This document shows positions 25,741-61,557 of a DNA stretch of 64,000 nucleotides, piece by piece. Origin of the DNA: Octopus vulgaris. Taxonomy: Eukaryota. The notes under the pieces were generated by a model, which was given only the letters and a program-made list of their open reading frames with translations, did no database searches and had not been told where the DNA came from. Location: contig OX597819.1 of NCBI GenBank assembly GCA_951406725.2, positions 114,762,001 to 114,826,000 on the forward strand, given 5' to 3'. A program made the position numbers and the translations under genes. Numbering within the stretch: position 1 is the first letter of the stretch; the number at the start of each line of letters is the position of its first letter.

Positions 25741-26106
25741 AATAAATCTCTGAGCGAGATATAGACAGTAACTGCTCTATAACATAAGGGGGATCAGCCA
25801 TCTGAATGTGGCTCAGTGACTGTGGTTACTGTGAAAATCCCTATATATCCAGCCTGTAGAGGAAGTCCCTCAACGAAGAACGGTACTTGCCATGCATTGA
25901 CAAGAGGCAATAACCTCGAAACCGGTCCGTATGTAGTATCCGTATCTTCGGGGAGGCTGATCTCCCTTTGCAGGCTGGCAAGGACACCGAGATGGTGTCA
26001 GCCCTTCTGGTGACGTTGATGATCGCCTGGGGCTAAATGCATCAGTAACACACCCACCACCCCGCCCTGTCCCTAGCCACATTCAGATGGCTGATCCCCC
26101 TTATGT
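25741..26106 (+). mobile_element. Small Penelope-like non-autonomous insert with internal inverted repeat and hammerhead
   Basis: 11-bp direct flanks CATTATATATT (25730-25740, 26107-26117); perfect 32-bp inverted repeat 25782-25813 / 26075-26106; central hammerhead fold. Confidence 0.6.
25891..25933 (+). ncRNA. Minimal type I hammerhead ribozyme, U3-A8 variant
   Basis: CATGCA-TTGACAA-GAGG(CAATAA)CCTC-GAAA-CCGG-TC-CGTATG; GUC triplet; one stem I mismatch adjacent to the core. Confidence 0.6.
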
Positions 26107-26688
26107 CATTATATATTGTTTCTGGTATAAATTAATATTACAAAGAAATATTACTGATCCCTGGCACAGTGGGGAGGGGAGGAAACTGCCGGTACACCAC
26201 ATAGGATAGTTTGAGAAGCACTGTTTTACATTACCTTTGTTGTATAGTTTTTTTTATTTCTTCCATAAAAGGCTCCACTGGAAAACTGCTTCTTCATAGT
26301 GCTTATAAAAAAGTCTTGGAAAAGTTTCATTTCAGCATTGTGTGGAGTGAAAACATTGTTGGTCATGATTTATTACAAAACCTTGATCTAACTGTAAAAG
26401 ATTCTTTCATAGAAAAGTATGATAGGACTTTTACTGAGTAAAATCTTATTTTAAAAAAGATGTACTTCAAAGTAGGTTTATGTAGCAAGATCTCAACCTT
26501 CCACATCAACAAATTAAGATGATTGTAAACACTTCATGAAATTGTGCCGTAGTGAAAAAAAAAACAAAAAAACAAACATAGAAGTATTCTAACTCTGACC
26601 ATTCAACATGTATTTTAGGGGCTACAGTGGTCAATTTATTGGTTGTGTATCTCTAGGAGACCTATGATTTAAAATGTTTCATCAGTAA

Positions 26689-26880
26689 CGAGCTGGCAGA
26701 AACGTTAGCACGCCAGGCGTTCTGAGTTCAAATTCTGCCGAGGTCGACTTTGCCTTTCATCCTTTCGGGGTCGATAAATTAAGTACCAGTTACACACTGG
26801 GGTCGATGTAATCGACTTAATCCGTCTGTCTGTCCTTGTTTGTCTTCTGTGTTTAGCCCCTTGTGGATAGTAAAGAAATA
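26689..26880 (+). mobile_element. SINE family A copy with internal deletion
   Basis: CGAGCTGGCAGAAACGTTAGCACGCCAGGCGTTCTGAGTTCAAATTC... Confidence 0.8.
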
Positions 26881-27684
26881 AGTATGTGTCCCCTGCTTTT
26901 GTATCTTATGAAGGCAATGTGATTTGAGGGAGATAGAGCTACTTTCTCTAGCAATTAAATGAATTTTTTGATTATTAGCAATAGTAAGATCTTTAAAAAA
27001 AACTGAAATAAAAATTCTGTAACAAAATTGTCACTTACTTAGGTTTTATGGAATTTCAAATTAGATTTTAAGTACAATATTTTAGCATGGATAGTGTATG
27101 TTGGGTCACTAACAGGAGATTTAGAGTTGGCTTAAGGAGGTTGCTATTTCTATCGAAATACATGAATTAGCTACACAACCATGAAATATACTTAGCTGTT
27201 TGATGTTTTACAGTCAAATGTTTGTGATAGCTTAGAAGTTTATTTTAATAATAATGTCAGTAGGTCTGGTAGACAACCATAACTTCCCAGAATGATATAA
27301 TAAACACATAGGTTAATGTCATTCTTGTATTTTATAAGTTTGTTTTTTTTGTTAACACTTGTTGGCATAATTTGAAAGGTTAATTATTTGTTTCATGATT
27401 TCTACTTCCTTCTCTCTTGTTTCCTGCTGTAACTCTTATGTGTATCAACTTAGTTAATGTATTTACATTTGTGGTTATAGTACTATAATTCAGGCAGTAA
27501 CCTGTATAAATTAGATTCTGTGAATAGTAGTGCAGCTATGGCAAAATGATTTACTGGATAAGGCACGAATCACTTAATTTGTTTTTAATCCCCTGAAAGG
27601 AAACTTTATCAAGCAGCGCTTTTATCGGACTTTATCAATCTTCACTTCAGCCAACTGATGTGAATAGACACCAGATCTGAGATC

Positions 27685-27967
27685 TTTTACAAAGAGAAGG
27701 CAGTGTGTACATTAAGTAAAGTTACATTTTCTAGTCATACTGACTCATAAGGGCCTGTTTCCCAGTTTCATGGCTTATATGTTCCCCATCTGGACAGGAT
27801 GCCAATCCATTGCAGGATTATTCATTTTTGTTAGCTGAGTGGACTGGAGCAACATGAGAATGAAGTGTTTTGCTCAAGAACACAATGTATTGTCCGGTCC
27901 AGGAACCAAAACTACAATCTTATGATCACGAGTCCAACACCCTAACCACTAAGCCATATTCCTTCAC
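27685..27967 (-). mobile_element. tRNA-derived SINE, family C
   Basis: Reverse complement has a GGCTTAGTGGTTAGGGTGTTGGACTC head and a GTGTTCTTGAGCAAAACACTT segment; related copy at ~34905-35175. Confidence 0.6.
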
Positions 27968-29029
27968 AATTAAGTGGTAGATGGATGACTGTTTTGCTAA
28001 AGTATCCTTGAAATCTAAGATCAGGACAGGGTCCTTTCTAGTATTAGAGGGGAAATGTAAGTGCTTGTAGAAAATAAATTTTTACTTTCAGGTTGACAGA
28101 TAAGCGACCATTTTGGATTTAAGGTTTAAACAACTTTTTCCTTGAGGCATTTTGCAGACTTTGTCAGTGGCTAGTTTTTCATTTGAATACAAATTAAACT
28201 TAGTTCTTTGAGGCTCCTCATCTTCTGATTGCAGTAACTTTGTTTAATCCAAGGTCAGCCTCAAGTCCTGTGATGAAAAGGACCAAATTGCTCAATCCAT
28301 TGTGTCCTTGTCTTTTTTTTATTTTTTTATTGCTGACTGTGTTACAGGTTTCCAATAAGAATCCTTCGTCTTCATTTGTAATTGTTCAATGATACTTTTA
28401 CAATATCTTTTTGTTGTAGTGATTTTGTATATGAATATTTGGTCTTGTGTTAAAATAAGTTGATTAAATCAATGATAAGGGAACCTTGTCAAGTCTTACA
28501 ATTGAATGAATGCATTGTTGACTGAATTGGATTTTTTCCGAATATTACTGCTATTTTAACTATTCATGTTCTCTAATTGTATTATATACATGTGTAGAGA
28601 AGATAGAAATGACCATCAGATGGTGTAGATTTGATAGTATATGCACCTATTTTTAGTAGGTCAAGCAACTGTAAATTTCTCTAGGTAAGTTGGCTCACTA
28701 TAGTGTTTTAGGTTTTTTTTTTTTTTTAATCTGTTAATGAGATCTATCTATAATCCCTTTTTATTTAAATTAGGACCAACCCTATAATTTTCTAGGTTAT
28801 TAATCTCATCAAAATGTATATTTAGTTTTTAGTTTTTCTCCAATCAAGTGTCTTATTTCTTATTGTTTGATGTCCATTTTCCATTCTGGTATGAATTGGA
28901 CAGTTTGATAGGGGCTGACTAGGCAGAAGGCTGCATTGGGCTTCACTGTCTGTTTTGGCATGGTTTTTATGGCTGGATGCCCTTCTTTCACCAACCACCT
29001 TACAAAGTGAATGTGTACATACACACATA

Positions 29030-30112
29030 AAAATGGAGTATCCTCCAAAAGGTATGCACACATTGAATGACTATAAGTTAGTGTTTATTGAAATGAATTT
29101 CATTTTTGAAATCTAATGGAATCTAGACAATTCAATTTTTTTTAATGGAAGTTTGTTTTCGAACTGGTGATTGTTCTGGTCCAGGCACTGTTGATAAAGC
29201 AATAGAATCGTGGAGATCAAGAAAAATTTTGTTCGGTATCTCTGTGCACTTTTGTTCAGTGGCTGCTCTTGATTTGACTGTTGCTGGAACTGTACTGTAA
29301 ACGTTATCCTTTAGGTATTCCCATAGAAAATCTATTGGCATGAGGTCTGGTGAACATGTCCGGTATCCCATCTTGCTGGAAATAAATCTCTACATCTTCA
29401 ATGTCTTCTTGAATGTTCAACATGACATTGTACCATAATAATTCACTGTACCATAACAAAAAAAAAAAGTCCAATCCTTTTGATAAGCCAGTAGCTCCTA
29501 GTAAATTAACACATTCCTCTGTAATATGCAGATGCTTAAGTTCCCAGTGAGTGCAATTGTGATGATTGATTGAGCCATTTAATTTAAATTTAACCTCATT
29601 ACTCTAGTCTTTGTTGGAAAGTATGCATCCTCTACACATCCTCCAAAGTACCACTTGGAAAAACTCCACACTTCTGTCTGGATAATCTTTGTTGAGATTA
29701 TGGACTACACTTAGAATGTAAGTTTTCAATGACAGCACTTCAGAATGCTTGATTTTGAAATTTGTCTCATGACTTGTTACACAGATTTTCTTCAATTCTA
29801 AAAATAGATTTCTGGTATCCTTTCATGAGGTCATTTTCTGGAACACTACTTGGGGACATTTTAAACAGTTCTGTCAGCTTCAGACTTATTTCTAATTCAA
29901 GTGATGGCAAGTCACATAGATGGATTTGTTTGATACTCCCACCTAAACTGTTTTTGCACTTCAACTGTATTTCAAACTTCCAGTAGCACCTTAGGACTAA
30001 ATTTCCTCTGTTAAAGCTTAGTCTGGCCCCCTTCAATATTTCTAAAGGGTTAAGTTCACAATGGAAATTACCTGCTTTTAAAGTGTGTACACATTTTTGT
30101 GGGGGACAATGT
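29030..30112 (-). mobile_element. Decayed Tc1/mariner-superfamily transposon
   Basis: Minus-strand fragments SPDLMPIDFLWEYLKDNVY and LSVVHNLNKDYPDRSVEF; imperfect TIRs at ~29034-29062 and ~30082-30110. Confidence 0.75.
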
Positions 30113-32889
30113 GTGTGCATGTGCACATACACACAAATGCATCATTGACTGAATTCTAGCTAGGATCCTTCGTGTAACTTTCCTAAGTTTAGTCTCTTGA
30201 GTTAAGAAATAGTTTCTGAGTTGGTTTGAATTCAGTTTAAAACCACGTGCCTATCCAGTAATAAGACAGATGACTGTAGATTGAAAAAACATTGTAAACA
30301 TAAATGTTATAAAATACACAATGTAAAAGTCTGTAGAATGATTCCTCATACCTATTCATGACTAAGTGAAGGTGTGTGGTTTAGTGATTGGGGTATTTGG
30401 CTCATGATCATATGGTTGGAAGTTCAATTCTTGACAAGGCACTGTCCAGTTCATTTAGCTTGCAAAAGTGAGTTGTACTTGTATTTCAGAAGATCAGCCA
30501 TGTCACACTGTGTCCCCGAGAACTACATTAAGGGTACATATCTGTGGAGTGCTCAGCCACATGGACATTAATTTCACAAGCAGGCTGTTCTATTGATCAG
30601 ATCAACTGAAATCCTTGTTGTAACCAATGGAGTGCCATACCTAACCTTATATATATATATATATATATATACTTTTTTACAACTATTTTTGTTTTTATAG
30701 GCCACAGGCTTCCATCCATTTGTACAAAAACAAACATTAACACTATGTACTTGATATTCGGTCTCTATTTTAAGTAGGGTAATGCAATCCAAGTGTGTGT
30801 GTGTGTGTCTCTCCATGCATTTGCAGATGAACTGGCAGTCAGTAAACCATTGGATACAATTCTTTGTGATATTTGTCCTGTAGTCTTGGTGCATTTATGG
30901 AATTATTAATGTTGGACAGGATCTTTGTGTTCGGAATTCACACATTCTGGATGTGTTCAGTTTGGAAGTCCTTTTACCAGTAGCTAAGTATTTCTTTGTC
31001 ATGTCATTCTCTGTAGTATAGGGGAGAGAGCGTGCAAGCAAGGATTCAGGGAAAACTGAAGCACAAACCTAAAATAGTATCTCTTCACTATATACATATA
31101 TAATACACACACAAATACATGCATTTGTGCGTGTGTGTACATACACACACGCACCTCCTTTGAAGATATGAAAAGGATAAAAGCTTGGTTTAATTATTTA
31201 TTGGCAAGATCATCTTTTAAATGTCATTAAATGTTAGGGGGACACAGAATGGTCATTTTAGTGTAATGTTCTCATGGTTAGCATGGTAACAGTTGACTGA
31301 GATGGGGGTTTATTACAGCTTTACTGCTGTCCTCTTATAAATTAGCTGTCAGGGTGATGGGGATTATATATCAAGGTGGAGGAGGTTGTCTTCTCTGGTT
31401 TTCATCATCACCAGTCTCTGGTTACTCTGTCATCATCCATTTCATTCTACTGCACCCTCTTCTACACCACCTTAAATATTTCAAATTTTTTAGCAAAGGG
31501 AAGTTTGAATGTTTCTAAATTTTGAGAACCTGTTTGAATGTTATACCTAAAGAAGCCCTCTAATCCTGAGCTCCCCATCCTATGTCTGCTTTAATCCTTT
31601 TCCTATCTTTTCTTACATTCTCTACCCATTTCTTTAGAGCTCTCTTGGTTCCTCTTTGTCTGTCTCAGTCTGTATTTAGCAGTTAAACCAAGCCTCTTGT
31701 ATTGATTTCGTTTTGTGAATAACTGGCCAATTTGTTACTGCATTTTTGCCAAGTAGTCGATATTTTGCAAGAGGCAAACCCACCTGTTTTATCATTCCTA
31801 CTGTCTCATATGACAAATTTCCTTGTTAAACTTTCCAAAATTGTAATTTGCAAAATTGTGACCAAGAATTTGTTTAGTCTACTGGTATTTATTTATTTGA
31901 ACAAATTTACACTATGGGTACTGGACCCTCATATTCAGGCATATAATTATAAAAAAAAAATTGCTTTGTACCAATATCAAAGTAACCACGATATGGCTCT
32001 TGAGTGCTTTTGTAGAGTCCACACTGTTGTAAGCATTAAGTATAGTTCTCTAATCTGCAGATATTTTGGTGTATTCCTTTATATTTTAGCAGCCTATGAA
32101 TTGTTGATCCAGCAAGCCAAAGTATTGTCACTTAGTATAAAGTGATGTTAAGGGAGATGGATTGGACTGTTCTAGCAAACTATGTAAAAAGGCAGTGGGC
32201 AGAATGTAATTTGAAGGAAATTCTTGGTTGTATACATGTACAGGTTTGTCATTCACAGGTGAATATAACCTGGAGGTTTGTACCACTTTGGCAAATTGTT
32301 TTCACTTCCTATGTAGACATATTCCCTCTCAACCTTGATTAAGCAGAATATCAAGGATGTGACAAAGAGGGCTGAAGAAGCAATTGACTGCATTAATTTT
32401 CATCTGACGAGTGTCAGTGCCATGTAAAAAGTACACAAGTACATGCTGTGAAGTAAATGGCTTTAGGAAGGGAATCCAGTTATAGAAACCATTCCAAATG
32501 GACATTGGAGCTTTACACAGTCCTTTGGCTCATCAGTTCCTGTCAAACCATCCAAAGCCATGGATGTTAAACTGATGATCTCAATGATAGACTGGAGCAA
32601 TGTGAGATAATGTGCTTTGGTTATGGATGCAGCATACTGCCCAATTTAGGAATTGAACTTAGGACTTAATCAGTCCAACACCCTAACCACTTAGACATAT
32701 TCCTTCACATGTCCCTGGGTACTTGCAGAATATTGGTCTAACTGGTAATCAGCTGATCTGGAAATATTTCCTGGAAAATCTTGAACAGTTGGTGGGGATG
32801 ATGGATTTACTTTCCAAGACTTTAGAATAACTTACTGATTCCTCTCCTCAATCTTTTTAAAACGTTATTTTCTTTTAATCTCTTTGCAG

Positions 32890-33015
32890 TGGAAGATGGT
32901 GCCAAAAGAGTGTCAAGGAAGAGAAAACAAGAGAAGTTGTTGAAAGAAAGAAATGCGTTCAAAAATATGTCACTCGTTGTGGATTTTTTTCTTTGGACTC
33001 GTGTACTTTTTACAA
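32890..33015 (+). CDS. EMI-domain membrane protein, coding exon 2 (EMI N-half)
   Basis: Polypyrimidine tract with TTTGCAG acceptor and GTATG donor; 126 nt, phase 2-2; GRWCQKSVKEEKTREVVERKKCVQKYVTRCGFFSLDSCTFY. Confidence 0.85.
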
Positions 33016-33137
33016 GTATGTTATACAATGAGCTTTTTATTTGAACTTTTCCTTGTATTCATCAAGTTTTGTTTGTATCTTTAATTTCTCTCCAGATTTC
33101 TGAAAATTATACACATTAAAAAAAAAAATCTTTTTAA

Positions 33138-33358
33138 CCCTTTCGTTACTATATTTATTTTAAGATGCTCTGTGTTTCTTTCAATTATTTTAAATATAAT
33201 AAAGAATCTAGTAAAATAACTTAGTTATCATTTAGCTAGTGTTAGGAACATAAATTGCAACTAAGGTTTGGTGGAAGATTTTAATAAAAAACTTATGAAA
33301 ACAAGACATTAATACTACAGAGCCAGAGCCAGTTTTGGCCGGGTTGGTAACGAAAGGG
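33138..33358. mobile_element. piggyBac-type MITE (221 bp)
   Basis: TTAA|CCCTTTCGTTAC ... GTAACGAAAGGG|TTAA. Confidence 0.85.
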
Positions 33359-34370
33359 TTAACCAAAAATCTAATGTTTAATGCTGTTTAGAATAAGATA
33401 TTAGTTTGTAATTTAAGTCTTACTGCATGCACAATATTGAGTCTAGATCTCTCATAGCATCTTCCAATCAATCTCTATTGTAAGAATAGATAGCTTTAAG
33501 AATTTTTGCATGTTGTTCTCTATCACCAGTTATCCCTTCCTTTACCCTGAATTACATTGCCTTAATGCTTTCAAAGCTGCTGTCACTCTCTCGTGGACCA
33601 TCAACATCTACACCCCAAATCAAAATCTGGTTTTGCTATATCTGCCCTTATGCTTTTCTGGCCTCTTTCTGTCACTATACATTTTTCCACCCACACTTTC
33701 CCACCCCACACATCTCCTTATTTCACATCTATCTTAGTTTTATTACACTGCTGCTTGTTACCCTTTTTGTAATGCCATTTATCACCTCCTCCTCTCTAAG
33801 CCATTTTTTTCTTTTACCTTCTCTCCAAAACTGACATTTACTATTTAACATGCTTCCACCCTTGCTTCCCAGTCACTATGCTCATCTCATCATCTGTCAC
33901 TTGCATCTTGCACTCTTATGAACTTAACCAACCACCTCTCTTGATCTCTATTTTTTTTTTTGTTTTAGATTCTTTTTGTATTTTGAGAGTATGCCCAAAC
34001 ATTTCATCCCTGCCATCCTTATGTCTTTTTCGAGTTACTGCCACTCTTATATAACGAGATAGCCATGTCTCCCCTCTTGAGCATGGCACCTGTTTTTGCC
34101 TCTCTATCAAACTTTTAGCTTCTCAACACCTGGCATAAAGCCACTACTCTCTACTACAATGATACTGTAAAAAAAAAAAAGCACCTAGTATACACTGTAA
34201 AGTGGTCAGTGTTAAGGGCATTCAACTACAGAAACCAAAATAAGGTATATAGAACATAGAAACACTTGACAGGCCATGTGTGCATTTCATGTCAATGTTA
34301 AAAAATATGATCATTAAAAGCTTATATCCTGTCCACAAGTCCATCATCCTTTTTATATATTTTCCACTAG

Positions 34371-36359: not shown

Positions 36360-36558
36360 TTAATCTGGGCTGACTTGGAAATAATGGAACCTTATATGTA
36401 TTACTTTAAGTTTGTAAAATTGTAATTACCAATATATATTTTCTCAGAAATTTTTTGAATGAATTTATTGAAAGCTTTGAAATATTTAAAAAAAAAATTT
36501 AAGTATCTTAGTTATCTTAATTTCTTTAAAATATTTTAAATATGTATACATTTATAGA

Positions 36559-36839
36559 GATGTACTTGCATAGCGAGTGACTTGATCTGAGATTGTGTGC
36601 TGGAACGAAAACAATTGCAGCGTGAAAGGTGTTTATAAGCCATTTAAGAAACACACAAAAACCGTTAGATTCACTTCAGCATTTAGATTTAATTCTCAGA
36701 TGCAGCACGAAGTTTTGTCAGTGAACAGGTCGTGGTCTCAAAGCGACGAAAATATTTTGACAAATTAAATTTAAATGTTGAAGTGTATCTAACGGTTTTT
36801 GTGTTTCTTAAATGGCTTATAAACACCTTCCACGCTGCA
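36559..36839 (+). mobile_element. Small Penelope-like non-autonomous insert with ~80-bp inverted repeat and hammerhead
   Basis: 13-bp direct flanks ATACATTTATAGA (36546-36558, 36840-36852); inverted repeat ~36614-36694 / 36763-36841; hammerhead fold between the arms. Confidence 0.65.
36714..36764 (+). ncRNA. Minimal type I hammerhead ribozyme, G3-C8 variant
   Basis: TTTGTCA-GTGAACA-G-GTCG(TGGTCTCAAAG)CGAC-GAAA-ATAT-TT-TGACAAA; 7-bp stem I, palindromic ATAT stem III, UUU triplet. Confidence 0.6.
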
Positions 36840-37894
36840 ATACATTTATAGAATTCTCTGCTAAATACTATCTTAGTTAAAATAGATGTTCCTTCTGTAC
36901 AGAAGAGTGATCTTATTTCAAGAAAGCAAGCAAACTTTGAACTACAGTTTAATGACCAGAATGAGTTTGAGGGAATCTGCAATACAACACATTTTGGAAT
37001 CTTGTCTCTGCTTCATCATATCTGGGAAGCTTATCACTGAAGTCTGATCTGTGTTTTTTGAGTCTTTGATCTGCCTTGGATATCTGGTTGTAAAAGTTGG
37101 TACTGGTTGCGGTGGTTTGTCAGTAAATGCTTTTAGCTTTGTTTACTGTCGAGTGTAATGCCTATTTTACATTGTTTTGAATTATGTATTGTCTCATGGC
37201 TTCAAGATTTCAATGATTCATTTTTGAATAACATTGTAGGGCAACTGTGAGAGGCAAGAGCTGGCAATTTGAGCACAAGACAGAATATTTGGGCTTGATA
37301 TGACCAGTTTGAATACTAGGATTAAATTTAATTCTTCCCACACTTGAACATTTTATACTCCTCTTTTACAAATCTCAATCTCATTTTATCTCCCATTAAC
37401 TCTGCCTCCCTTCAGTGTTATCAGTGGGTAACAGGAAAAGAATTTATATAAAGCAGATAAATGAAGTATAATTAAGATAATTATTAGTAATAAATTAAAA
37501 AGGTTGGTTTAGTTTAAGAGTTTGAATTATGCATGATTAACATTGTGTTTACATGAAAATGAGAATTGCTTACCAATGGCTTTTTATCTGTGAATGCTTC
37601 TTGCAAAATTACAGTTGGATGGTTGTCATTTGAAAGCTACATCATTATCACTGTGCAGGCATATGTGTATAAGTGTGATGAAGACATTGATTTTGAATCA
37701 ATATCTGGTTCTTGCAATATGGTGTGCAGTGTCAGACATCTGTGAATGTCAGATATAACGAGCTTCTGTTTATAGAGTCACTGGTTGGAATTGGCTCATC
37801 TTAATCCCAAGTGAATGCTGATACAAGTAATGATGGACAGTTTCTTTTTACTAAATTCCTCTTACAAAGCATTGGTCAGCCTAAGACTATGACA

Positions 37895-40455: not shown

Positions 40456-40496
<41 letters not shown>

Positions 40497-44849: not shown

Positions 44850-44888
<39 letters not shown>

Positions 44889-47597
44889 AAAAACAGTGAA
44901 CTAATGAAGCTAACTCTTATTACGTATGTTGAATTATGTTTAAAATTGTTTGAATCTTTGAGTATTGCTTCACATTAGTTTGAGAATTATTATTGTTGAA
45001 TATTTTGGACCCAAACACAACTATTTAATTTTTGTATGCGTATAATCCCGACTGAAAGTAACCGAGTCTCTAAGTCACTGTAGTTCAAAGATCTCTAAGT
45101 ATGTAATAAATGTAGTGACGAAAGAATTTTATCTCGGTACTTTTAGCATCTTTTTCTTTTTTTTTTTTTTTTTTTTGCAATGGCAACAATAGGTGCCATA
45201 AGAGATGATCTAAGAGGGTTAAACTAGTCATCCAAGAATAGATGAATGTGGTAAAATATTACTAAGGAAATTGTAGTGTTGACTGATATTCAGTTATGTC
45301 CCTTTACATCCTGAGCTTTAAAAACCACTCTGGAGGGTGAAGTAAAACCGTGTCTCTTCCCAGGAAGAGCAGTTAAATCAAGTAAATCTTGGTCTATGAA
45401 GTTTTTTGCTTTGAGCTAAAGCTAGAAATTTTATTAGCTCTGTCATGTCACTGAATACTGGATGTTATCTTACTACATTAACATCTGTAAATTCCCCTCT
45501 AAGCACTTGCCTTGATGCTTCAAAAGAAATAATTGGCCTTTATTATTTGTGTGTTAGAATGTGAAGACTTAGCAAGTGAGAGGGATCAAACTTCTTGAAT
45601 AAACAAAATATATTCTCAGTTGTTTAGAAAATAATATTTTGGTGAAAACATATTTTAATATCATTTCTCTATGGGTTTATTTTCTGAGAATTCCATAATC
45701 AGAGACCATAATAGATCTTTTCCTCCAGGATCATAATTACGCATTCTCCAACCTCTCAATACTGCTATAAGTGATGGTTACTCCCAATTTTGGCTCTTTG
45801 GATTTATCTCTGATCTTTAGAAAAATTTTCCCTGCCGTTAAAAGAATTTATATTTTTTACTTTTGATTACTTTTTTTCTTGAGGTTTGGACCAGTTTCAT
45901 TCCTGCCGTTTTTTTCCCATCACTGCCATGTGACGAAACAATAGTGATTAACATATTCATTTTCAAATCTGCCGGAATGTGTTAAGAATATGTAAGTCAT
46001 CGTTTCTCACTATTCACTATGCATATTATGATTTAGTACTGGTTGGCAGATGTCAACATGCTTCAGCAAACGATTTGTTTGCTAAAGTTATAAACAAGAG
46101 CCTTGAACTCTTGTTATTCATTTGTCTGAGTGCCTTTGGCTGACAAGACACAATGATGTTGAAATATAAAATGTTCCAGAGTCCCTTGCACTGATGAATT
46201 ATGGAAACCCACTCATTGCTTTAAGCTGTTTTCTTGTCATGAAACACAAGTGATTAGTATATTCACTTTTCTAATCTGCCAGGATGTATTAAGTATAAAT
46301 ATGCAAATCATATTTACCTTTTTGATTAGTAGACGGAATTGCTTCCCTTAGATACTTTTCCTGAGCTATTGATGGAGACCATACGCAATTGTTTGATCTC
46401 CAAGAAATAGTAGCCACATCACCTTCAAACAACGATGGTAGAATCAAGGCTGGAATCCCTTTTGATTATAGCTCTTCTTGTTCAGGGTTTTACCAAGGGG
46501 TTTGTCAACTAGTGATACCAAATCATGTTTTGAATTGATTCACAAATAACTATCAAGGTATATGCTTTCATCAGTTTGCATTTCTTTACATTAATAAATT
46601 CAGGCTAAGAATTTCTCCACCTCTTTATTTCCAGATGTTTTTCAGCATTGAAAATGACTGTTTAATTATAGAATTGATATTAAAAACAAAAAGAAAAAAA
46701 AAAAGAGAATGCACAATTTATCTGGGCTGTCTTCACTCTTTCTTCAATTTCTTCTATGTAAGGGGTTCCTGAACTCAACACTTCCTTTTCATGCACACAT
46801 TTAATTCTACTGGACAAACTCACCTCACCTCACCAGTTATGTTTCACAACATTTTCAAAGAACAACTCTGCCCCATGTAACTCTGTATTAAGTTCTTGGT
46901 TAAATCCTTCTTCACCAGAAATGCATCTCAGAACTTTTGTTTCGCAGCCCACAATTCTTTTATGAAACAAACCAAACAGTTAGCTGTATTATCTCTACAT
47001 ACTTTTCACTGTTTAAATAATTCTTGAGAGCACTGTTTCTCCACCTCTCCCTTTGAGTTGGAACTTTCTTACTGTTATGTCCATTTCAACAAGTATCTGG
47101 ATTTTTTAATCATCATTTAAGATCTTTAATACTTAGGGGATATTTTTATCAATCTTTTACCAAACTTTAGCCTGAACAGAATGTATTCAGGCATAGGACT
47201 TATATATAATATATATATATATATATACTTTTTTATCTGAGGGGAGGCAATGCGAGCAACAAGCACAGGAACATCACAAAATCCACAGAAAGACCAAACA
47301 TACAAATCTTCATAAACTCATTTATATTTATAAAGCCCTACGTTTAAAAATTTAAAAATTTAGTAATATATAAATATATCATATAAAAATATAAATTTTG
47401 CATATAACACCTTGAATTTACGCTTAAAACATTTAGTATAAATTTGTTACAATAAGAGAAATAAATATAATAATAAATAAAAATAAAGCATACAAAGGCA
47501 TATCAAAAGACGAATTAAAATTCTAGCGAAATGTACATAGAAGATAATAATTATACATGTTTACAAAAATATAAGTTTACAAAGATACACAGAAGTC

Positions 47598-47679
47598 CAT
47601 CTACGGGCCGTTTTGGAGACGCGCCAATTAATATTAGACATATCATATACTTAAAATTGGCACTCCCCTCATCAGGATG
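47598..47679 (-). ncRNA. Type I hammerhead with long stem II; G12 mutated to A (probably inactive)
   Basis: Reverse complement: CATC-CTGATGA-GGGGAGTGCCAATT...AATTGGCGCGTCTCC-AAAA-CGGCCCG-TA-GATG. Confidence 0.65.
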
Positions 47680-47881
47680 TCCTATACATACATCACATAG
47701 TAAACGTGAACAAATACACAATCACATACCGGCCATATTCAGAACCGAGACATTACGTACTCCCCAATTATATATATTAATTATATATATATAGCAAGGA
47801 AAAATTGTAAAAATGCAGAATGCTAAATTGAAAGAAAATTTTAATGAAATGAGAAATTGATAAAATATATAAATATATATT

Positions 47882-47923
47882 TATTCAAACCGGTTTTCGT
47901 CATAGTTTGACTTATCAAGAATA
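47882..47923 (-). ncRNA. Minimal type I hammerhead ribozyme, U3-A8 variant
   Basis: Reverse complement: TATTC-TTGATAA-GTCA(AACTA)TGAC-GAAA-ACCGGT-TT-GAATA. Confidence 0.6.
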
Positions 47924-48242
47924 GTTGGGTCAAAAAGTTTTTTAAAAATGAGAAAGGGGAAAAAAAGTTGCATTGTTTTTTGCAAAAGAATAATAATAAA
48001 TATGTATAAAAATTAGAAAATAAGTACTCCGATACATTGTGAGTTTGTTGTGTATCTTGAGTTTAATGATTATTCACGAAAAAATTACCTTGAGGTATTA
48101 GGATCCAATGGGATTAAGGCCATGTGTTGTTTGGTTTAATTTAGGATGTTGGCAAAACAGGAAGTAGTAGTAATTGTGGTTCTTCAGTTCCTGTGTCGTG
48201 AATAAGGGGAGACAACTCTTTTGAGTTCTTCAATAAAGGCTG

Positions 48243-48275
<33 letters not shown>

Positions 48276-49396: not shown

Positions 49397-52300
49397 CTGT
49401 TTTCTATAAGTTCATGTAAATTTTGGTTTTTATGCTTGTTTACTATCTAAATGTCATTTTAAATGGCTTCTTTAATTGTACTAGAAACAAAGGTAGTGTT
49501 AGCTGGAGCTCATTGGGGTCCTTTTGAACCAAAGGGAGAGCGACTGCAATTTAGGTGCTTAGAGTTTTAAGCTTGCAGAAGTTAGTAAAATGCAGAGATG
49601 GCTGAAGTTTTGCATGTAATCTACATTTCACTTAAGCCTTTCACATCTTGGGTTATGCTATTACATTTGCCTTTTGTGCTTGACTGTTATTGTGTCACCT
49701 CTGTTGCATATTTGGATTTCAAGTTTTGTCATGCTTAGCAATATTATGTTAAAGTAGTTCTTTAGTGACAAACATATTGCAGATGGTTGATCTTGAACCC
49801 TGTAGTGTATGTTAGTTTGGCACAAAAATTTTGTCTAGCTTCTGAATCTGAGATTTGTCTAGGTATTAGATAAGTTGATGAGTAAGAAAGACTTCATTGA
49901 TTTACCAGCAGTTCACCTGGAGAAGTTTTTTGCAAGTTCTTAATGCTTGTGATTAATAGTACAAGGTTCTGCTTGTAACTGGCCACAAGTGATGGCAATG
50001 TGTTCCATATTTTTTTATTCCTTGTTCCACATCTTTGTTCTTTCTAATCTTTGAGATACCTGTATTGTTGACTGGTTCCAATACAGCTATCAATTTATCT
50101 AATCCATAGGTTTTTGCTTAGGTGCATGACCAACTTAACACCTGACTGAATTTATTTAGTTCACATTTTATATTGACTTTTTTTTTTTTTTTTACTGTAA
50201 AAAGCCTTAAGTCACTAAGCAGTGTGTGCTTTGTGATGGCTTCTCAATTTCAGTTAAGAACAACTCCAGCTGGCTCTGGATACAAATAGTGACAGGTTAT
50301 GTGTTAATCCATACAAAACAGAGAAGATAATTTTAAAAAATACATGGTGGACTCCACACTGCAAAACAGAATTGTCCATCACCTGTCAGAGAGGATCTGC
50401 ATCTTCTACTTCTCTAGATGTTAGTAGAGCCAGAATTTACACAGCTCTCACCTTGTACTTTTCAGTAATCTGTTTAATATTTGAGGTGGAGGGAGACTCC
50501 ATTCTGTAGTGGTTAGTGCATGGATTGGTAGCTTCCTGCACAATTCCATTATTGTCATTGTGTATTAAATGGAAATCTTAAAAATCACAGTGGTTGCTTT
50601 TCATCTTTCCACACTGGTAATAGGTGTTTCCCATCATTGTTTAACCTCCTATTCCAGAATTTCAATACTTGGCATGGAGTACTTTTTTCTTTTTTTTTAA
50701 TAAATCAATTTTGACTCAGAATAATGCCTATCATCTCATGGGTGAGTGTTTGTGATCCTAGAATAAGCCAGGAAAAAAAAAAGCTTGAGGCACTAAAGTC
50801 TTTGTCATACAATTGTTGATGAATAGATGACTTATTGAAGAGGCATACGTGGTGGTCATATAAAGATTTGGCACCTATCCTCTGAAAGGTTTAGGGAACC
50901 AAGCAGTAGGGTGAGAGTCTACCTATTTATCAAAGAGTATTGTTTATTCTCTTTAGGCTTAACTTAGACTTCAATTGATAACTTTGTCATTTAAAAACAC
51001 TAAATTAGACTACATGCGTTTCATGACAATATATCTGTTGATATTCCTGAAATAAGAAGTTCAATACCATATCAATCTATGCTGCCAATCTTCAGGTCTG
51101 GATTATATGAAACTATTTTACTATTTATATCTTATATAAAGACATGACAATCAAATTTAAACAACTAGAAATCGTCAAAATAATTTTTCTTTACTACATA
51201 AAGAACAAGGTAATATATATATATATAGATAGATATATAATTACTGCCTATTGTTTGTGTCTTCTCTTTTAGCTCTCCATATGACTCATTTGTTGCACTG
51301 AGTAAATTTTCTTTGGGAAGTGGTGTTTCACTGTTAGACACTTTATGGCAAACAAAGAGAACAGCAATCTAGATGACTGAGAATAAATATTCTCCATAGG
51401 AATAGCATGATATCCTTTTTCCTTGTTTTGAATGATCTTGGAATCCAACCAGTCACTGGTCTACAGTGGTTCCATCTTGGTAATATGTAGATGGAGTTTT
51501 CTGAGTTCAAATGCCACCAAAGTTGACTTTGCCTTTCATCCTTATGGTGTCGATAAAGTAAGTACCATTTGAGTACGGCGGTTGCTGTAATCAACTAACT
51601 CCTTCCCTCGAAATTGCTGGCCTTGTGTCAAAATCTGCAACCAATATGTAGATGGCATGTTGCATCATTACTCATGTGGATCCCCAGTAAAATTGCACTA
51701 CTCCTCGGCCCAGTGTATTCTGATTGCACTCTGTTGGCTTATAACAGTGCTTGAAGTTGCTCAGCATTGAACTGCATGTTATGTTCATCAGCTGGCAAAG
51801 GAAAAAAGTCACTGACAAAGCACTTTCAAGTGAAGACTATCATGTTTTATAGGGGTTCCTAGGATTGTGTTCACTGTGTCCTTCTCTTTTTATGTATAAA
51901 TCAATATTCATCATTCAAAATTCAACAAAGAAATATGAATAAAAGGGGATTGTAAATCATTGGCAGACTCAGTTTAAGGTTTTCCACTCATTTCCATCCA
52001 GCTTCAGCTGCTAGATATATTTCACTGAGTGACATCCCACAGTCTATGAATGGTATGGTGGTATGTTCTTGTTTTCTCATGCTTTCCACCTTGTAGGGTC
52101 TTAAGCAGTAGGTACTGTTGATAGTATTTATTGTGTGGGTGTTGCAGTTGGTGACCTGTTCACCTCAACTAGTGTTCCTTTATCCTTGTGCTGATTTGCT
52201 TTTTGTCAGTCATTTGGTACAATGTATTCTTGGAAATGTGGTCATTATAGGATATCTGATATATTGTCCTCAGGTTTCGTCTGTGGAAAGTGTTCACCAT

Positions 52301-55300
52301 GACCCTTTACTGATTTGTATTTGTTACTCATGTCTTACTTCTTTATGTAAAAATTAAAATTACCTGTTTTTCAATTTTCTAATGTGTTATTCTTAGAATT
52401 AAGTCAAATTATGTGAAACCTTTGCAACCTTGATGTGTAGAAATTACATTTGTATTTAAGAGCTGTTAATTCCTCCATTATGCTTTAAAAGTCCAACCTA
52501 CATCTTTTTTGCATATTGAGCATGGGCATTTCTTAAGTGGCAGTTCTGCCTATTTCTTTTCCTGACAAGAGTTTTACTAAGTTTACTTTAATCCTTCTTG
52601 ATTCTTGGTTTTGACTTCCGTGTTTTGAATTTCTTTTCCAATTCTTAGACTGATTCAGGTGGGAACGAGGTCAAAATTAAGATCTCAAAGGTAGTGAGCC
52701 AGCCAAATTTCGGTTAAGGGAATACATAGATACCTCATCCATCCAATCAAAATTCTCTTGAAACCATTTTATCTACGATTCTTAACTGGTATTATTAATG
52801 ATGGAAAGTTGCAATTTCATATACAATCACATTTCTTCCATCTGTTTCTTAGCAAGGGATTTGAGTGAGGCTGTGGAGAAATTACATTTGTATTTAAGAG
52901 CTGTTAATTCCTCCCTTATGCTTCAATATTCAAAGTGGGTTTGAGAAATGGAATGAGTTTCTACCAATTAAACCATTATCACTATTTGATATTATCCCTA
53001 AATGCTCATTTCAAAATCTTTAGTGCATTAACTGTTAGTTTATGGTGAAACAAATACAGAACATTGATACTGTACCTTAAGCTCTCTGTTCCAATTTTTC
53101 ATCGTAAAACATTTATGATGGTTAGTGTTCTATTGCAGATAGTGGGAGTGTGTTTTTTGTTCATTTGCAGTCCTGAGATCTTACTTCATGGGCAAAGCCC
53201 AAGAATAGATTGCCATCCTGGTATTTTAAAAATTTGTTTATTTAGATATCTTAAAAGAATTGGAGAAAGTGGATTGCTTGAAGGCACTTTTTTTCTAAGC
53301 TAAATACTTAGGAACCGTCTGGATTATATAAAACAATTTTACTATTTACATCCTATATCAAGACATGACAATTAAAATTATACAACTAGAAATCGTGGAA
53401 AAAGTTTTTCCTTACTAAATAAGGAACAAAAGTTATATATATATATTTATATATATTACTGCCTATTGTTTGTGCCTTCTCTTTTAGCTCTCCCCATGAC
53501 TCATTTGTTGCACTGAGTAAATTTTCTTTGGGAAGTGGTGTTCCATTGTTAGACACTTTATGGCAAACAAAGAGAACAGCAATCTAGATGACTGAGAATA
53601 AATATTCTCCATAGGAATAGCATGATATCCTTTTTCCTTATTTTGAATGATCTCGGAATCCAACCAGTCACTGGTCTACAGTGGTTCCATCATGGTAATA
53701 TGTAGGAGTGTTCTGAGTTCAAATGCGACCAATGTTGACTTTGCCTTTCATCCTTATGGTGTCGATAAAGTAAGTACCAGTTGAGTACGGAGGTTGTTGA
53801 AATCAACTAACTCCTTCCCTCGAAATTGCTAGCCTTGTGTCAAAATCTGCAACCAATATGTAGATGGCATGTTGCTTCATTACTCTTGTGGATCCCCAGG
53901 TCATGCATCCACTATATCTCTAAGATTGCACTACTCCTCGGCCCAGTGTATTCTGATTGCACTCTGTTGGCTTATAATAGTGCTTGAAATTGCTCAACGT
54001 TGAACTGCATGTTATGTTCTTCAGCTGGGAAAGAAAAGAAGTCACTGACAAAGCACTTTCAAGCGAAGACTATTATGTTTTATAGGGGTTCCTAGGATTG
54101 TGTTCAGTGTGTCCTTCTCTTTTTATGTATAAATCAATATTTATTATTCAACAGAGATATGAGTAAAAGGAGATTGTTAATCATTGGCAGACTCAGTTTA
54201 AGGTTTTCCACTCATTTCCATCCATCGTCAGCTGCTAGATATATTTCACTGAGTGACATCCCACAGTCTGTATGAATGGTATGGTGGTATGTTGTTCTTG
54301 TTTCCGCATGCTTTCCACCTTGTAGGGTCTTAAGCAGTAGGTACTATTGACAGCATTTATTGTGTGGGTGTTGCAGTTGCTGACCTGTTCATCTCAACTG
54401 GTGTTCCTTTATCCTTGTGCTCATTTGCTTTTTGTCAGTCATTTGGTACAACGTATTCTTGGAAATGTGGTCATTATAGGACATCTGATATATTATCCTC
54501 AGGTTTCTTGTATTTGTATTTGTTACCCATGTCTTAATTCTGTATGTAAAAATTAAAATTACCAGTTTTTCAATTTTCTAATGCGTTATTCTTAGAATTA
54601 AGTTAAATTATGTGAAACCTTTGCAACCTTGATGTGTAGAAATTACATTTGTATTTAAAAGCTGTTAATTCCTCCATTATGCTTCAATAGTCAAAGTGGT
54701 TTTGAGAAATGGAATGAGTTTCTAGCAATTTCTCAAGGAAGAAGACAAAAATCAAAACTTGGCTTGTGAGATTATGTCTGTGCTTGTGTCAAAGCCAATG
54801 TTATTTACAGCCATTCTCGAAACTATACTCTGCTAGATTGTTCTACAATAGATGTTCATTGTTTACATCCATTTTTCTATGCTTATATCAGGTGGACAAA
54901 GCACTTTCAAGCGAAGAATATCATGTTTTATAGGGGTTCCTTGGACTTGTGTTCAGTGTGTCCTTCCCTTTTTATGTATAAATCAATATTTATTATTCAA
55001 AATTCAACAAAGAAATATGTATAAAAGGGGATCGTTAATCATTGGCAGACTCAGTTTAAGGTTTTCCACTCATTTCCATCCATCTTCAGCTGCTAGATAT
55101 ATTTCACTGAGTGACATCCCACAGTCTGTATGAATGGTATGGTGGTATGTCGTTCTTGTTTCCTCATGCTCTCCACCTTGTAGGGTCTTAAGCAGTAGGT
55201 ACTGTTGACAGCATTCATTGTGTGGGTGTTGCAGTTGCTGACCTGTTCATCTCAACTGGCGTTCCTTTCTCTTTGTGCTCATTTGATTTTTGGCAGTCAT

Positions 55301-56250
55301 TTGGTACAATGTATTCTTGGAAATGTGGTCATTATAGGATATCTGATATACTATCCTCAGGTTTCTTGTGTGAAAAGTGTTCACCATGGCCCTTTACTGA
55401 TTTGTATTTGTTACCCATGTTTTACTTCTTTATGTAAAAATTACAATTACCAGTTTTTAAATTTTCTAATGCATTATTCCTAGAATTAAGTTAAATTATG
55501 TGAAACCTTTGCAACCTTGATGTGTAGAAATTACATTTTTATTTGAGAGCTGTTAATTCCTCCATTATGCTTCAATATTGAAAGTGGTTTTGAGAAAAGG
55601 AATGAGTTTCTAGCAATTAATCAAACGATTATCACTATTTGATATTATCCCTAAAAGCTCACCTCAAGATCTTGAGTGCATTAACTGTTAGTTTATGGTG
55701 AAACAAATACAGAACATTGACACTACACCTTAAGCTCTCTGTTCCAATTTTTCATCGTAAAACAGTTATGATGGTTAGTGTTCTATTGCAGACAGTGCGA
55801 GTGTGTTTTTTGTTCAATTGCAGTCCTGAGATCTTACTTCATGGGCAAAACCCCACAATAGATTGCCATCCTGGTATTTTAAAAATTTGTTAATTTAGAT
55901 ATCTTAAAAGAATTTGAGCAAGTGGATTGCTTGAAGGCACTTTTTTTCTAAGCTAAATACTTAGGAACCGTCTGGATTATATAAAACTATTTTACTATTT
56001 ACATCCTATATCAAGACATGAAAATCAAAATTATACAACTAGAAATCGTGGAAAAAGGTTTTCCTTACTAAATAAGGAACAAAAGTTATATTTATATATT
56101 TATATATATTACTCTTTATTGTTTGTGCCTTCTCTTGTAGCTCTCCCCATAACTCATTTGTTGCACTGAGTCAATTTTCTTTGGGAAGTGGTGTTTCACT
56201 GTTGGAATCTTTATGGCAAACAAAGAGAACAGCAATCTAGATGACTGAGA

Positions 56251-57519
56251 AATAGAGAATACCAAACGAGTTCCCTATGGATACCGTATTTATCACAAGT
56301 GGCTTGTAAATGTATCTAACGAGCGAAAGCGAGTTACATACATTTACAAGCCACGAGTTGTAATAAATACAGTTTCCATAGGGAATGAGTTTGGTATTTT
56401 ATTTCTTACACACAAATAAACGACCATATTTTATTAACCCAATAACTAAATTCTTCACATCGTGTTGAAGCGCGCATGAATAAAGCTTGATTTCACGTCA
56501 GTGACGTCACAATGTGTAACTGTAAAAGATGTCATGCCGCAGGAAGATAGTCCGACTTTATAGCGCTAAGTTTTCAGGTGAAATGACTGATGACTGTTTA
56601 ACATTTTGTTAACATTCACGTTCAAAAAATACATAACACAGATTGAATCTTCAATAACTTTAATAATACTCAAACCTGTTTTCGAGTAGCAATGTCAGTC
56701 AGAGTAGAGCACAACAGTCCATGCAGTCCAGTAAAACTTAACAGTCCTCATTATCTGTGAGACGAGGTCGCTTTGCATCTGAACCAAAGAAGTTCACATT
56801 GATTGTTCCCCCATATATAGGAGCCGAGAAAATGGAGTGCACAGAACCAAAGCAAGTGACACAGTTGAAATTCAAGTTCATTATTGCTCTCATCAAAGAA
56901 ATCGTCACGTAGAAGTTCGTTGATCACCTCATCAGGGATGTTAGATCTAGGGTTCGATGACAATCCACTTGTCGATGACCCTGTTTCAGGTACCTTTGTT
57001 AACCTGTATCCAGCAACATGTCGAACTTGGCCAGTATTGATCTTCACTTTGAACATTCTATATGTTCCAAGAGGTTGAACAACGGATAACACTCTTCCCC
57101 CATCTTTACCATCAATCTTAACAAAATCATTCACCTTGATATCGACAACAGTAGCCATCTTGTTGATAGATCTACCTACACTGCAAGAGTATCGACGACC
57201 AGACGAAATATGTTGTGATTTTTTTGGCAACAAAAAATTGAATTACCACCAGAAATGTTTATATTTTATGTGTATATGACTTTAAGTGATATCTGGTATA
57301 AAAAAGATAGTATGTTTGTTTAATTATATGGCTACATTCTACCTGCTCGTGAAAGTAATGAATGATGTTTAGTTGTAACTTATGAATGACAAAAGTAGTG
57401 CCGTCACCGTGACCTCGGGTCATCACCCTGGATTGACCAATCAGAAGCAGTGCTCGCAGTATCTGACATATGTTAGATACCAAAAATATCTCAGTGTTCT
57501 CACTCACATGCGTGTAATA
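56251..57519 (-). mobile_element. Internally deleted Crypton-like (tyrosine recombinase/DUF3504-type) element
   Basis: Splits GACTGAGA|ATAAATATTC, which is contiguous in the other array units, with no clear TSD. ~140-nt subterminal hairpin at 56258-56398 around GAGCGAAAGCGAG. The N-terminal ORF is joined out of frame to a C-terminal IFSAPIYGGTINVNF...KRPR tail. Family assignment is from recollection of such elements. Confidence 0.55.
56738..57158 (-). pseudogene. Remnant of the element's ORF (SH3/KOW-like N-terminus plus frameshifted C-terminus)
   Basis: AAGATGGC start at 57158: MATVVDIKVNDFVKIDGKDGGRVLSVVQPLGTYRMFKVKINTGQVRHVAGYRLTKV...DDFFDES. A second frame ends SDAKRPRLTDNEDC*. Confidence 0.5.
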
Positions 57520-60062
57520 ATAAATATTCTCCATAGAAATAGCATGATATCATTTTTCCTTGTTTTGAATGATCTTGGAATCCAACCAGCCACTGGTAAT
57601 ATGTAGATCGAATATTCTGAGTTCAAATGTGATCAAGGTTGACTTTGCCTTTTATCCTTATGGTGTCGATAAAGTAAGTACAAGTTGAGTACTGGGGTTG
57701 ATGTAATCAACTTACCCCTTCCCTCGAAATTGCTGGCCTTGTGCCAAAAACTGTAACCAATATGTAGATGGCATGTTGCATCATTATTCATGTAGATCAC
57801 TTTGTCAGGCACCAGCTATATCTCTAGAATTGCACTACTCCTCGGCCCAGTGTATTCTGATTGCACTCTGTTGGCTTATAACAGTGCTTCAAGTTGCTCA
57901 ACGTTGATCTGCATGTTATGTTCATCAGCTGGCAAAGAAAAGAAGTCACTGACAAAGCATTTTCAAGCGAAGACTATCATGTTTTATAGGGGTTCCTAGG
58001 ATTTGTGCTCAGTGTGTCCTTCTCTTTTTATGTATAAATCAATATTTATTATTCAAAATTCAACAAAGAAATATGAATAAAAGGGGATTGTTAATCATTG
58101 GCAGACTTAATTTAAGGTTTTCCACTAATTTCCATCCATCTTCAGCTGCTAGATATATTTCACTGAGTGACATCCCACAGTCTGTATGAATGGTATGGTG
58201 GTATGTTGTTCTTGTTTACTCATGCTCTCCATTTTGTAGGGTCTTAAGCAATAGGTATTGTTGATAGTATTTATTGGGTGGGTGTTTCATTTGGTGACCT
58301 GTTCATCTCAACTGGTGTTCCTTTATCCTTTTGTTCATTTGCTTTTTATCATTCATTTGGTACAATGTATCCTTGGAAATGTGGTGATTATAGGATATCT
58401 GATATATTATCCTCAGGTTTCTTGTGTGAAAAGTGTTCACCATGGCCCTTTACTGATCTGTATTTGTTACCCATGTCTTCTTTATGTAAAAATTACAATT
58501 ACCAGTTTTTCAATTTTCTAATGTGTTATTCTTACAATTAAGTTAAATTATGTGAAACCTTTGCAACCTTGATGTGTAGAGATTACATTTGTATTTAAAA
58601 GCTGTTAATTCCTCCATTATGCTTCAATATTCAAAGTGGTTTTGAGAAATGGAATGAGTTTTTAGCAATTTCTCAAGGAAGAAAAAAAAATCAAAACTAG
58701 GCTTGTGAGATTTTATCTGTGCTTGTGTCAAAGCCAATGTTACTTACAGCTGTTCTTGAAACTATACTCTGCTAGATTATTCTACAATAGATGTTGTTCA
58801 TTGTTTACATCCATTTTTCTATGCTTATATCAGGTGGACTAATCTTTTCCAGCTCAGCATCATGCCATTTGTTGCAGTTCCATCCACATTTATTTTATGT
58901 TGCACATTGAGAATAGTTTTCTCTCCTTCTTCCCAAATCTTTCTTTTCTGCTTATTCCCATTCCATTAATAGCTTTATACTTGTTTACTCACTGTCTTTC
59001 AACATATCCATTGGATGTTTATACTACTTTAGGCTCCTCCTTTGCACACCATGGTTGATACCTCTTATACACAGTGGCTCTCTCGTATAACCTGTTTTCG
59101 TTGGGTACACAGTATAATATTCCAACCTACATCTTTTTTGCATATTGAGCGTGGGTATTTCTTAAGTGGCAGTTCTACCTATTTCTTTCCCTGACAAGAG
59201 TTTTACTAAGTTTACTTTAATCCTTCTTGATTCTTGGTTTTGACTTCTGTATTTTGAATTTATTTTCCAATTCTTAGACTGATTCAGCTGGGAAATAAGT
59301 CAAAATTAAGATCTCAAAGTTAAGGAGCCAGCCAACTTTCGGTTAAGGGAATACATAGATACCTCATCAATCCAATCAGAATTCTCTTGAAACCATTTTG
59401 TCTACGATTCTTAACTGGTATTATTAATGATGGAAAGTTGCAATTTCATAAACACTCACATTTCATCCATATGTTTCTTAGCAAGGGATTTGAGTGAGGC
59501 TGTGGAGAAATTACATTTGTATTTAAAAGCTGTTAATTCCTCCATTATGCTTCAATATTCAAAGTGGTTTGGAGAAATGAAATGAGTTTCTAGCAATTAA
59601 TCAAACCATTATAACTATTTAATATTATCCCTAAAAGCTCATTTCAAAATCTATAGTGCATTAACTGTTAGTTAATGGTGTAACAAATACAGAACATTGA
59701 CACTACACCTTAAGCTCTCTGTTCCAATTTTTCATTGTAAAACATTTATGATGGTTAGTGTTCTATTGCAGATAGTGGGAGTGTGTTTTTTGTTTAGTTG
59801 CAGAACTGAGATTTTACTCTTGGGCAAAACCCCACAATAGATTGCCATCCTGGTATTTTAAAAATTTGTTAATTTAGATATCTTAAGAGTTGGAGAAAGT
59901 GGATTGCTTGAAGGCACTTTTTTTCTAAGCTAAATACTTAGGAACCGTCTGGATTATATAAAACAATTTTACTATTTACGTCCTATATCAAGACACGACA
60001 ATCAAAATTATACAACTAGAAATCGTGGAAAAATTTTTTTGTTATTAAATAAGGAACAAAAG

Positions 60063-60100
<38 letters not shown>

Positions 60101-60111
60101 TTTATAGAAGG

Positions 60112-60162
60112 AGCTTCTACAGGAGTAGAACTGTTTCATTCAGATGAAATCTTCAGGAAGCT
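60112..60162 (-). ncRNA. Type I hammerhead ribozyme (C3-G8)
   Basis: Reverse complement: AGCTTC-CTGAAGA-TTTC(ATCT)GAAT-GAAA-CAG(TTCTACTC)CTG-TA-GAAGCT; GUA triplet; U.U at 10.1-11.1. Confidence 0.75.
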
Positions 60163-60479
60163 GGCTGTCAAAATAAGTTCTGCTATTTATGCATTTAGGC
60201 AGATTTAATGGAGTGGTGGTGGCAGGGGGACGTTTTTTGGGTAGGTTGGTATTTAGGAGATAAACAGGGCACAAGCTATTGTTCTTAGGGGAGTGGTCAA
60301 AAGGCCATAGTGTTTTTTGAAATGAGAAGAATCAGTGAGAAAATAAATAAATGAATAGAAACCCCAAGAATAGTATTTCAACAGATATATGGGATGGGAT
60401 TTTAGGTAAATTAGAAGACAATTGCTTTTTGGTGGTCAAGAAGAGGTAGGCAGTTTGTTATTGTTAGGTGGAGGCAATA

Positions 60480-60641
60480 AATAGATAAATATACATGAAA
60501 AAACATAAAAAAATATAAAATAAATATACATACACATGCGAATATACATATGCATACATACGCACATATATATACATACATACATACACATACATACACA
60601 TATATATATATATCCATAGATATACATACATACACCTACAT

Positions 60642-60672
<31 letters not shown>

Positions 60673-61030
60673 CAAATACACATAAGTATACATACATAAA
60701 TATACCCATGCACATATAAACATATACATAATTATGCATATATAAACACATACATAAATATTCATATGTACACACAAACACACATAAATATATACACGCA
60801 TATATAAACACATATGTACATATAAAAACATGTGTATATAAATATATACACGCATATATAAACACATATGTACATATAAAAACATGTGTATATAAATATA
60901 TATATACGCATATATAAGTATATATACGCATTTAAATACATATATGCATAAATAAATACACACGCATACACACATACATTTATATACAAATACACATGTA
61001 TATATAAATACACATACGCATACATAAATA
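60480..61030. repeat. Compound (TA/CA)n microsatellite
   Basis: Directly visible; source of spurious ORFs. Confidence 0.9.
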
Positions 61031-61480
61031 TATCAAACTAAAATCATTGAACAAACAAATGCAAGGTCATCCGCATATCATTTCATAATTCGAACATTTA
61101 ATTATAGAATAAACATATAACCCGCAAGATGGAACAAAATTCATATGTATAGCACGTAATATTAATAATAATATGGTGCGAGAAAAATTCTTATCATTAA
61201 AAATTTAGAATTAATATTTTAGCGATTCAAAGAAAATACATTTATAAAAGGACGTAGAAAGTAAAATATAATATAAGTAATATATAAAAATATATAGGTA
61301 TATAAAAATATAGGCATATAAAAATATATAAAACATATATAAATATATATACATATAGGAGCATATAAAAAAATATATAATATATATATCATGTAAATAA
61401 AGTAAAATAAGGTTCATCGTTTAGAAATCTTATTCAGGTAAAATAAGCCTTATATTTAAGAAGGAAATCATGTTTACTTA

Positions 61481-61557
61481 TCCCTATGGCCATTTCAGCG
61501 GTGTATTATGTTTAAAGCACTAGGGTGCATTCAGATAATACCTCCTTCGTCAGGAGA
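61481..61557 (-). ncRNA. Type I hammerhead ribozyme with long stem II, intact core
   Basis: Reverse complement: TCTC-CTGACGA-AGGAGGTATTATCTGAATGCAC(CCTA)GTGCTTTAAACATAATACACCGCT-GAAA-TGGCCA-TA-GGGA; AUA triplet; ~550 nt 3' of the GIY-YIG ORF on the same strand. Confidence 0.75.

Follow-up and report, generated by a model that had tools for sequence, protein, structure and literature searches.

Hammerhead ribozymes of Penelope-like elements have been published to cleave as dimers, and their rates in vitro are low. Lunse et al. 2017 are said to have dealt with 150,000 variants of such hammerheads. Minimal hammerheads of metazoan Penelope-like elements were described by Cervera and De la Pena (2014, PMC4209133); according to the available parts of that paper, they share with the motifs reported here a type I fold in terminal repeats behind the reverse transcriptase (RT) and GIY-YIG endonuclease, a palindromic helix III, an extra base after A9, and the common occurrence of U17. 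The same source lists U3-A8 families in Schistosoma with about 1,300 hits, and among its representatives are one with U3·G8 and one with G as the extra base, but its Fig. S3, as available, has no G3-C8 row, no cephalopod, and no tracing of intermediate states. Covariation of C3-G8 to U3-A8 was also reported, with several natural examples, by Perreault et al. (2011, PMC3088659), the available text of which names only U3-A8. Both the U3-A8 core and an additional base behind A9 are therefore already in print, and an earlier sequence-only reading of this locus gave the U-A core too much weight.

Two further systems are close. In the Anolis Poseidon PAc hammerhead (PMC11167929, available parts), the engineered C3G/G8C exchange partly restores cleavage, and this ribozyme cleaves only with the protein of the element; the insertion catalysed in vitro by the lizard Penelope is independent of cleavage. 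Metazoan non-LTR retrozymes (Cervera and De la Pena 2020, PMC7229834, available parts) consist of a non-coding tandem unit with a type I hammerhead, 350-390 bp long in mussels, and Penelope has been proposed as their mobiliser. Penelope elements and retrozymes may or may not need hammerhead cutting, given the low rates in vitro and the one element that inserts without cleavage.

The window, 64,000 nucleotides of the Octopus vulgaris genome, carries six hammerhead motifs (families A-F) in the following features:

25740..26116, plus strand: family A insert; a 360-nt non-coding tandem unit, 5'-truncated, at 25814-26109; the upstream part, 25740-25813, is an inverted copy of the 3' end of the unit with the tail
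25891..25933, plus strand: family A hammerhead, type I fold; core U3-A8 at 25897-25903; helix II of 4 bp, helix III a 6-nt palindrome, GUC site
36537..36841, plus strand: family B insert; the 3' end of a Penelope-like element of the RT/GIY-YIG type at 36693-36841, preceded by an inverted 3' end and tail
36714..36764, plus strand: family B hammerhead; core G3-C8 at 36721-36727, extra G at 36728; helix II, a 6-nt A/U palindrome, UUU site, helix I of 7 bp
47200..47764 (left edge approximate), minus strand: family D insert; the 3' end of a Penelope-like element, other copies of which have GIY-YIG upstream
47598..47679, minus strand: family D hammerhead; canonical C3-G8 core, first core base 47675; long helix II
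47769..48244, minus strand: family C insert; the 3' end of a Penelope-like element of the RT/GIY-YIG type
47882..47923, minus strand: family C hammerhead; core U3-A8 at 47918-47912; 8-nt palindromic helix III, UUU site
60112..60162, minus strand: family E hammerhead; canonical core, first base 60156; weak helix II closed by U·U, helix III of 4 bp
61481..61557, minus strand: family F hammerhead; canonical core, first base 61553; long helix II, 8-nt palindrome
62106..62864, minus strand: family F GIY-YIG endonuclease end; the hammerhead of the element lies downstream of it, also on this strand (Pfam PF01541, E 0.0006, below the curated cut-off)

The six folds and their core bases had been recognised in the sequence-only reading, and all are present, each in a multi-copy family; the positions given there marked the edge of helix I and not the core, and the extra G between A9 and helix II of the fold at 36714 went unmentioned. 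All six families have helices I and II, an NUH site, and a short helix III of palindromic or almost palindromic sequence; GAAA is found in five motifs, with AAAA in family D. G10.1-C11.1 closes helix II in families A, B, C, and D, a different pair does so in family F, and the U·U mismatch of family E is atypical. Three of the window copies are decayed relative to their families. That of family A has a copy-specific lesion, a mismatch at the helix I base adjoining the core (core at 25897), that of family F carries two copy-specific changes in helices I and II, and that of family D, alone among the window copies, has lost G12 (G to A at 47614) and is predicted to be dead; the loss of G12 is seen in 4 of 28 aligned family D copies. 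In the variant families A, B, and C, positions 3 and 17 (the latter at 25927, 36757, and 47887, respectively) are not Watson-Crick complementary; a 3-17 pair was described to trap an inactive hammerhead fold (PMC3884650). The inserts of families D and C are neighbours on one strand, abutting with a short AT repeat between them (47200-48244).

A descriptor leaving positions 3 and 8 free matched five places in 204 kb of native sequence (the window and 14 evenly chosen 10-kb stretches), every one with a Watson-Crick 3-8 pair; block-shuffled copies of this sample, 2.04 Mb in all, gave four matches, of which one was Watson-Crick. Hammerhead matches thus exceed chance. Three of the six window copies are recovered by this descriptor, as are the families of all six, whereas an Rfam scan of the window yielded no hammerhead at E up to 5, only microRNA matches driven by microsatellites. 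Applied to 276 loci together with the window, which overlap and are enriched for the families sought, the descriptor returned 315 matches in 22 clusters, 8 of which are single matches, at about two false matches per Mb expected from the shuffled control. The majority 3-8 state was C-G in 16 clusters, U-A in five, and G-C in one, and no cluster had a mismatched majority. Further U3-A8 hammerhead-like motifs, unrelated to families A and C and with one or two matches each, were seen at L170:3655, L005:1007, L212:2767, and L161:618.

The variant cores were counted in the whole genome (2.8 Gb, 227 contigs). Each of the six motifs has at least 40 close matches there, the best 40 candidates having been scored, and 25-30 loci were fetched per family. 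Since similarity matches lean towards the query, exact patterns open at positions 3, 7, and 8 were used for the counts. In family B, G3 was found in 6,452 copies and another base in 197; C8 was present in 95 of the first-listed 100 copies with G3, and C3-G8 in none of the first-listed 100 without it. The change rates of 3% at position 3, 5% at position 8, 2% at position 7, and 2% at the extra base are alike in size, as expected from decay after insertion. Family C had U3-A8 in 83 of 84 exact-pattern copies, and the variant core is family-wide in family A as well. These counts rule out copy-specific decay as the origin of the variant cores, in agreement with the earlier reading. A canonical sister of family B was sought and rejected: eight matches in the genome combine C3-G8 with the helix II of B, none of the eight has its loop, and the two that were fetched lack a match to the B protein and show doubtful similarity in the tail. 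The old canonical-core motifs at L251:1500-1530 and L252:1500-1530, which have the helix II, the extra G, and the U17 of B, are possible relatives of the ancestor of this family.

The surroundings of the motifs are of the Penelope type in all six cases, as had been proposed. An inverted 5'-truncated copy with a 3' tail, the insertion feature defined in PMC8557442, occurs at loci of families A, B, C, E, and F. Hammerheads of families B, C, D, and F lie downstream of GIY-YIG coding sequence, and those of B, C, and D also of RT; among the fetched loci, copies of C and D run upstream into both, while in family F only the GIY-YIG end is seen, its frame lying upstream in the window itself. The RT assignment was read from motifs and from a weak blastp similarity between B and C, Pfam giving weak support for family C (E 0.002) and none for B and D. 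From these frames, the motifs of B, C, D, and F are assigned to the 3' ends of protein-coding Penelope-like elements and not to small retrozymes; being linked to Penelope coding sequence, they lack the non-coding unit of the latter. The earlier suggestion of several small non-autonomous, retrozyme-like families therefore fits only the 360-nt element of family A. For family E, no coding sequence tied to the motif was found in 25 loci and four extensions; the RT beside one copy was considered as a coding partner and rejected, as it leads to a different hammerhead.

Family B is judged from its frames to be a young RT/GIY-YIG Penelope-like family. In all six long-frame loci fetched, the motif has G3-C8 and follows, at a distance of 1,000 nt, an open frame of roughly 1,000 codons that includes GIY-YIG, a microsatellite-rich 3' region lying between the two; the frames are 97-99.8% alike, and that of locus L199 is open over 1,025 codons and is 5'-truncated by an inverted copy. 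The exchange engineered in the Anolis ribozyme is thus the natural state here. No natural G3-C8 was found in the literature searched, nor in the available part of the PMC4209133 supplement, which does not establish its absence from print, and the literature searched contained no report of a cephalopod hammerhead.

Family A, by contrast with the coding families, is retrozyme-like as far as its unit can tell: the unit is non-coding, repeated in tandem at a period of 353-360 nt, within the 170-400 nt of retrozymes, carries a type I hammerhead, and is strongly self-paired (z -3.6). Unlike the retrozymes of PMC7229834, as described in its available parts, family A forms dispersed short arrays and has Penelope-type inverted truncated ends and variant cores; its GC content of 49% (49.4% in one unit) also differs from the value below 45% stated there, which is a tendency more than a strict criterion. 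The head-to-tail joint of the unit occurs in contigs from two of three presumed-RNA runs and also from a DNA-like run, and contigs cannot tell circles from tandem DNA. Parts of the unit (L021:1369-1460 and 1670-1710) have a contig depth far above that of the hammerhead part and many loose ends, which indicates that they are shared with other abundant repeats. In a single case (L009:1-1750), a family A copy is fused to the middle of the RT frame of B, behind an inverted B segment, and B sequence does not resume after the A copy; this junction may be a template switch, a hint that the B protein moves A.

A motif resembling that of family A, with U3·G8, had first been seen in the descriptor scan, and it comes from a sister family that is about 70% alike over the whole unit and mostly U3·G8. 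With a pattern fixed on the shared helix II, the genome contains 587 copies with C-G, 637 with U-A, 105 with U·G, and 37 with C·A, so that positions 3 and 8 are paired in 1,224 of 1,366 exact-pattern copies of the superfamily; copy counts are not independent events, and the subfamilies differ in age. A narrower pattern, covering 385 copies, had two transversions at position 3 and one at position 8. The U·G and C·A cores form groups with common loops, some of them in tandem arrays, and such shared loops identify the mismatched cores as amplified subfamilies. Pairing is hence favoured for spread and not required. The earlier claim that the 3-8 pair covaries is borne out by the majorities of all 22 clusters; as a strict rule it fails on these subfamilies. 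Same-strand neighbours one unit apart, counted by hand among the matches listed, were found for 34 of 100 C-G, 6 of 100 U-A, 4 of 100 U·G, and 3 of 37 C·A copies, a comparison confounded by age.

Trees were built with positions 3, 7, and 8 masked, from 52 and 48 rows chosen out of about 1,400 copies to cover the states, the partial loci L263 and L133 being left out. A single-clade origin was rejected both for the C-G rows (p-AU 0.0002) and for the U-A rows (p-AU 1e-44), and the superfamily tree requires at least six changes of the 3-8 state, to which no direction is given, the rooting being an assumption and the branch to the A group long. Sister to the C·A clade (98/85) stands a C-G clade (97/86), and the two are joined at 100/98 among U-A rows. 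The four-state superfamily, its mismatched cores as amplified subfamilies, and the repeated switching on the tree are new; the literature searched held no tracing of 3-8 intermediates.

Such switching might arise with little selection on the pair, from recombination between subfamilies and from mutation bias, position 8 being part of a CpG wherever position 7 is C. The four common states are all transitions apart, CpG decay is visible in the copies, and the A group sits on a long branch of the tree, with two columns linking the C·A and C-G rows of this group to the outgroup. Position 3, however, is outside the CpG, independent change at the two positions would not leave 90% of the copies paired, and neither G3-C8 nor the paired majorities of unrelated families would be explained, which makes this account quite improbable.

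We consider it probable instead that the hammerheads, which lie in terminal repeats of five or more unrelated Penelope-type families, are likely capable of weak self-cleavage as dimers and likely under selection for any Watson-Crick 3-8 pair rather than for C-G itself. The dimer fold is supported in the superfamily by helix III, which is perfectly palindromic in 102 of the 109 copies matched and takes five different sequences, and by helix I, the sequence of which varies while its pairing is kept. Two units would pair via the palindromic helix III to form the active sites, which would cut the precursor RNA to unit length; cleavage would be weak and perhaps aided by the protein of the element, as published for other Penelope hammerheads. 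The Penelope RT/GIY-YIG protein would then copy the RNA into new sites. A master copy without the 3-8 pair would still spread for a while, to a lesser extent, and lineages regaining U-A or C-G would spread about ten times more. A double transversion would have ended in the G3-C8 now fixed in family B. Any Watson-Crick pair thus appears to be tolerated, and we infer selection for catalysis on these motifs. Against this reading stand the amplified U·G and C·A cores, the atypical helix II of family E, and the weak features of family B, namely G3-C8 itself, the UUU site, and an A/U-only palindrome with a duplex energy of -0.2 kcal/mol.

The same weak helix III suits the notion that the variant motifs, chiefly that of family B, are fossil ribozymes, or nearly dead ones, that travel with successful master elements, the pair being kept by past selection or by a structural role (protein binding, RT template) and not by present cleavage. 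Mismatched subfamilies do spread, Naiads spread without canonical hammerheads, and the lizard element inserts in vitro with no need for cleavage and no RNA ends at the site (PMC11167929, available parts). However, all 22 clusters are paired by majority, and paired states outnumber mismatched ones about nine to one and arise repeatedly; moreover, older and younger lineages of B share the core although loop II differs, an observation of little weight alone at 88% identity. We regard the passenger status of these motifs as unlikely, albeit less so than mutation bias.

Near-identical natural subfamilies here differ in the 3-8 pair and in copy number, so that cleavage rate can be compared with spread directly. 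Natural cases in which compensatory change of a catalytic tertiary pair can be followed, the two intermediate states being still present, are rare, and the superfamily is one of them. Thousands of motifs in the Octopus vulgaris genome escape searches that demand the canonical core. Tentatively, and with more doubt than confidence, we suggest that one genome records a stepwise, repeated swap of a catalytic pair via amplified U·G and C·A states, copy number serving as a measure of fitness, and that it is also home to a young Penelope family, protein-coding and of more than 6,000 copies, with a working inverted G3-C8 hammerhead, neither of which would be in print.

The window holds other repeats as well. 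At 51096-60086 and 63220-64000, a unit of 2.2-3.9 kb is repeated head to tail in four to five degenerate copies that are 86-94% alike, and a 163-residue frame in this repeat (56751-57242, minus strand) has no Pfam match. An ISXO2-like transposase domain (PF12762) was found in a 327-residue frame at 17569-18552 on the minus strand, and a non-LTR reverse transcriptase fragment (PF00078) at 1011-1424 on the plus strand.
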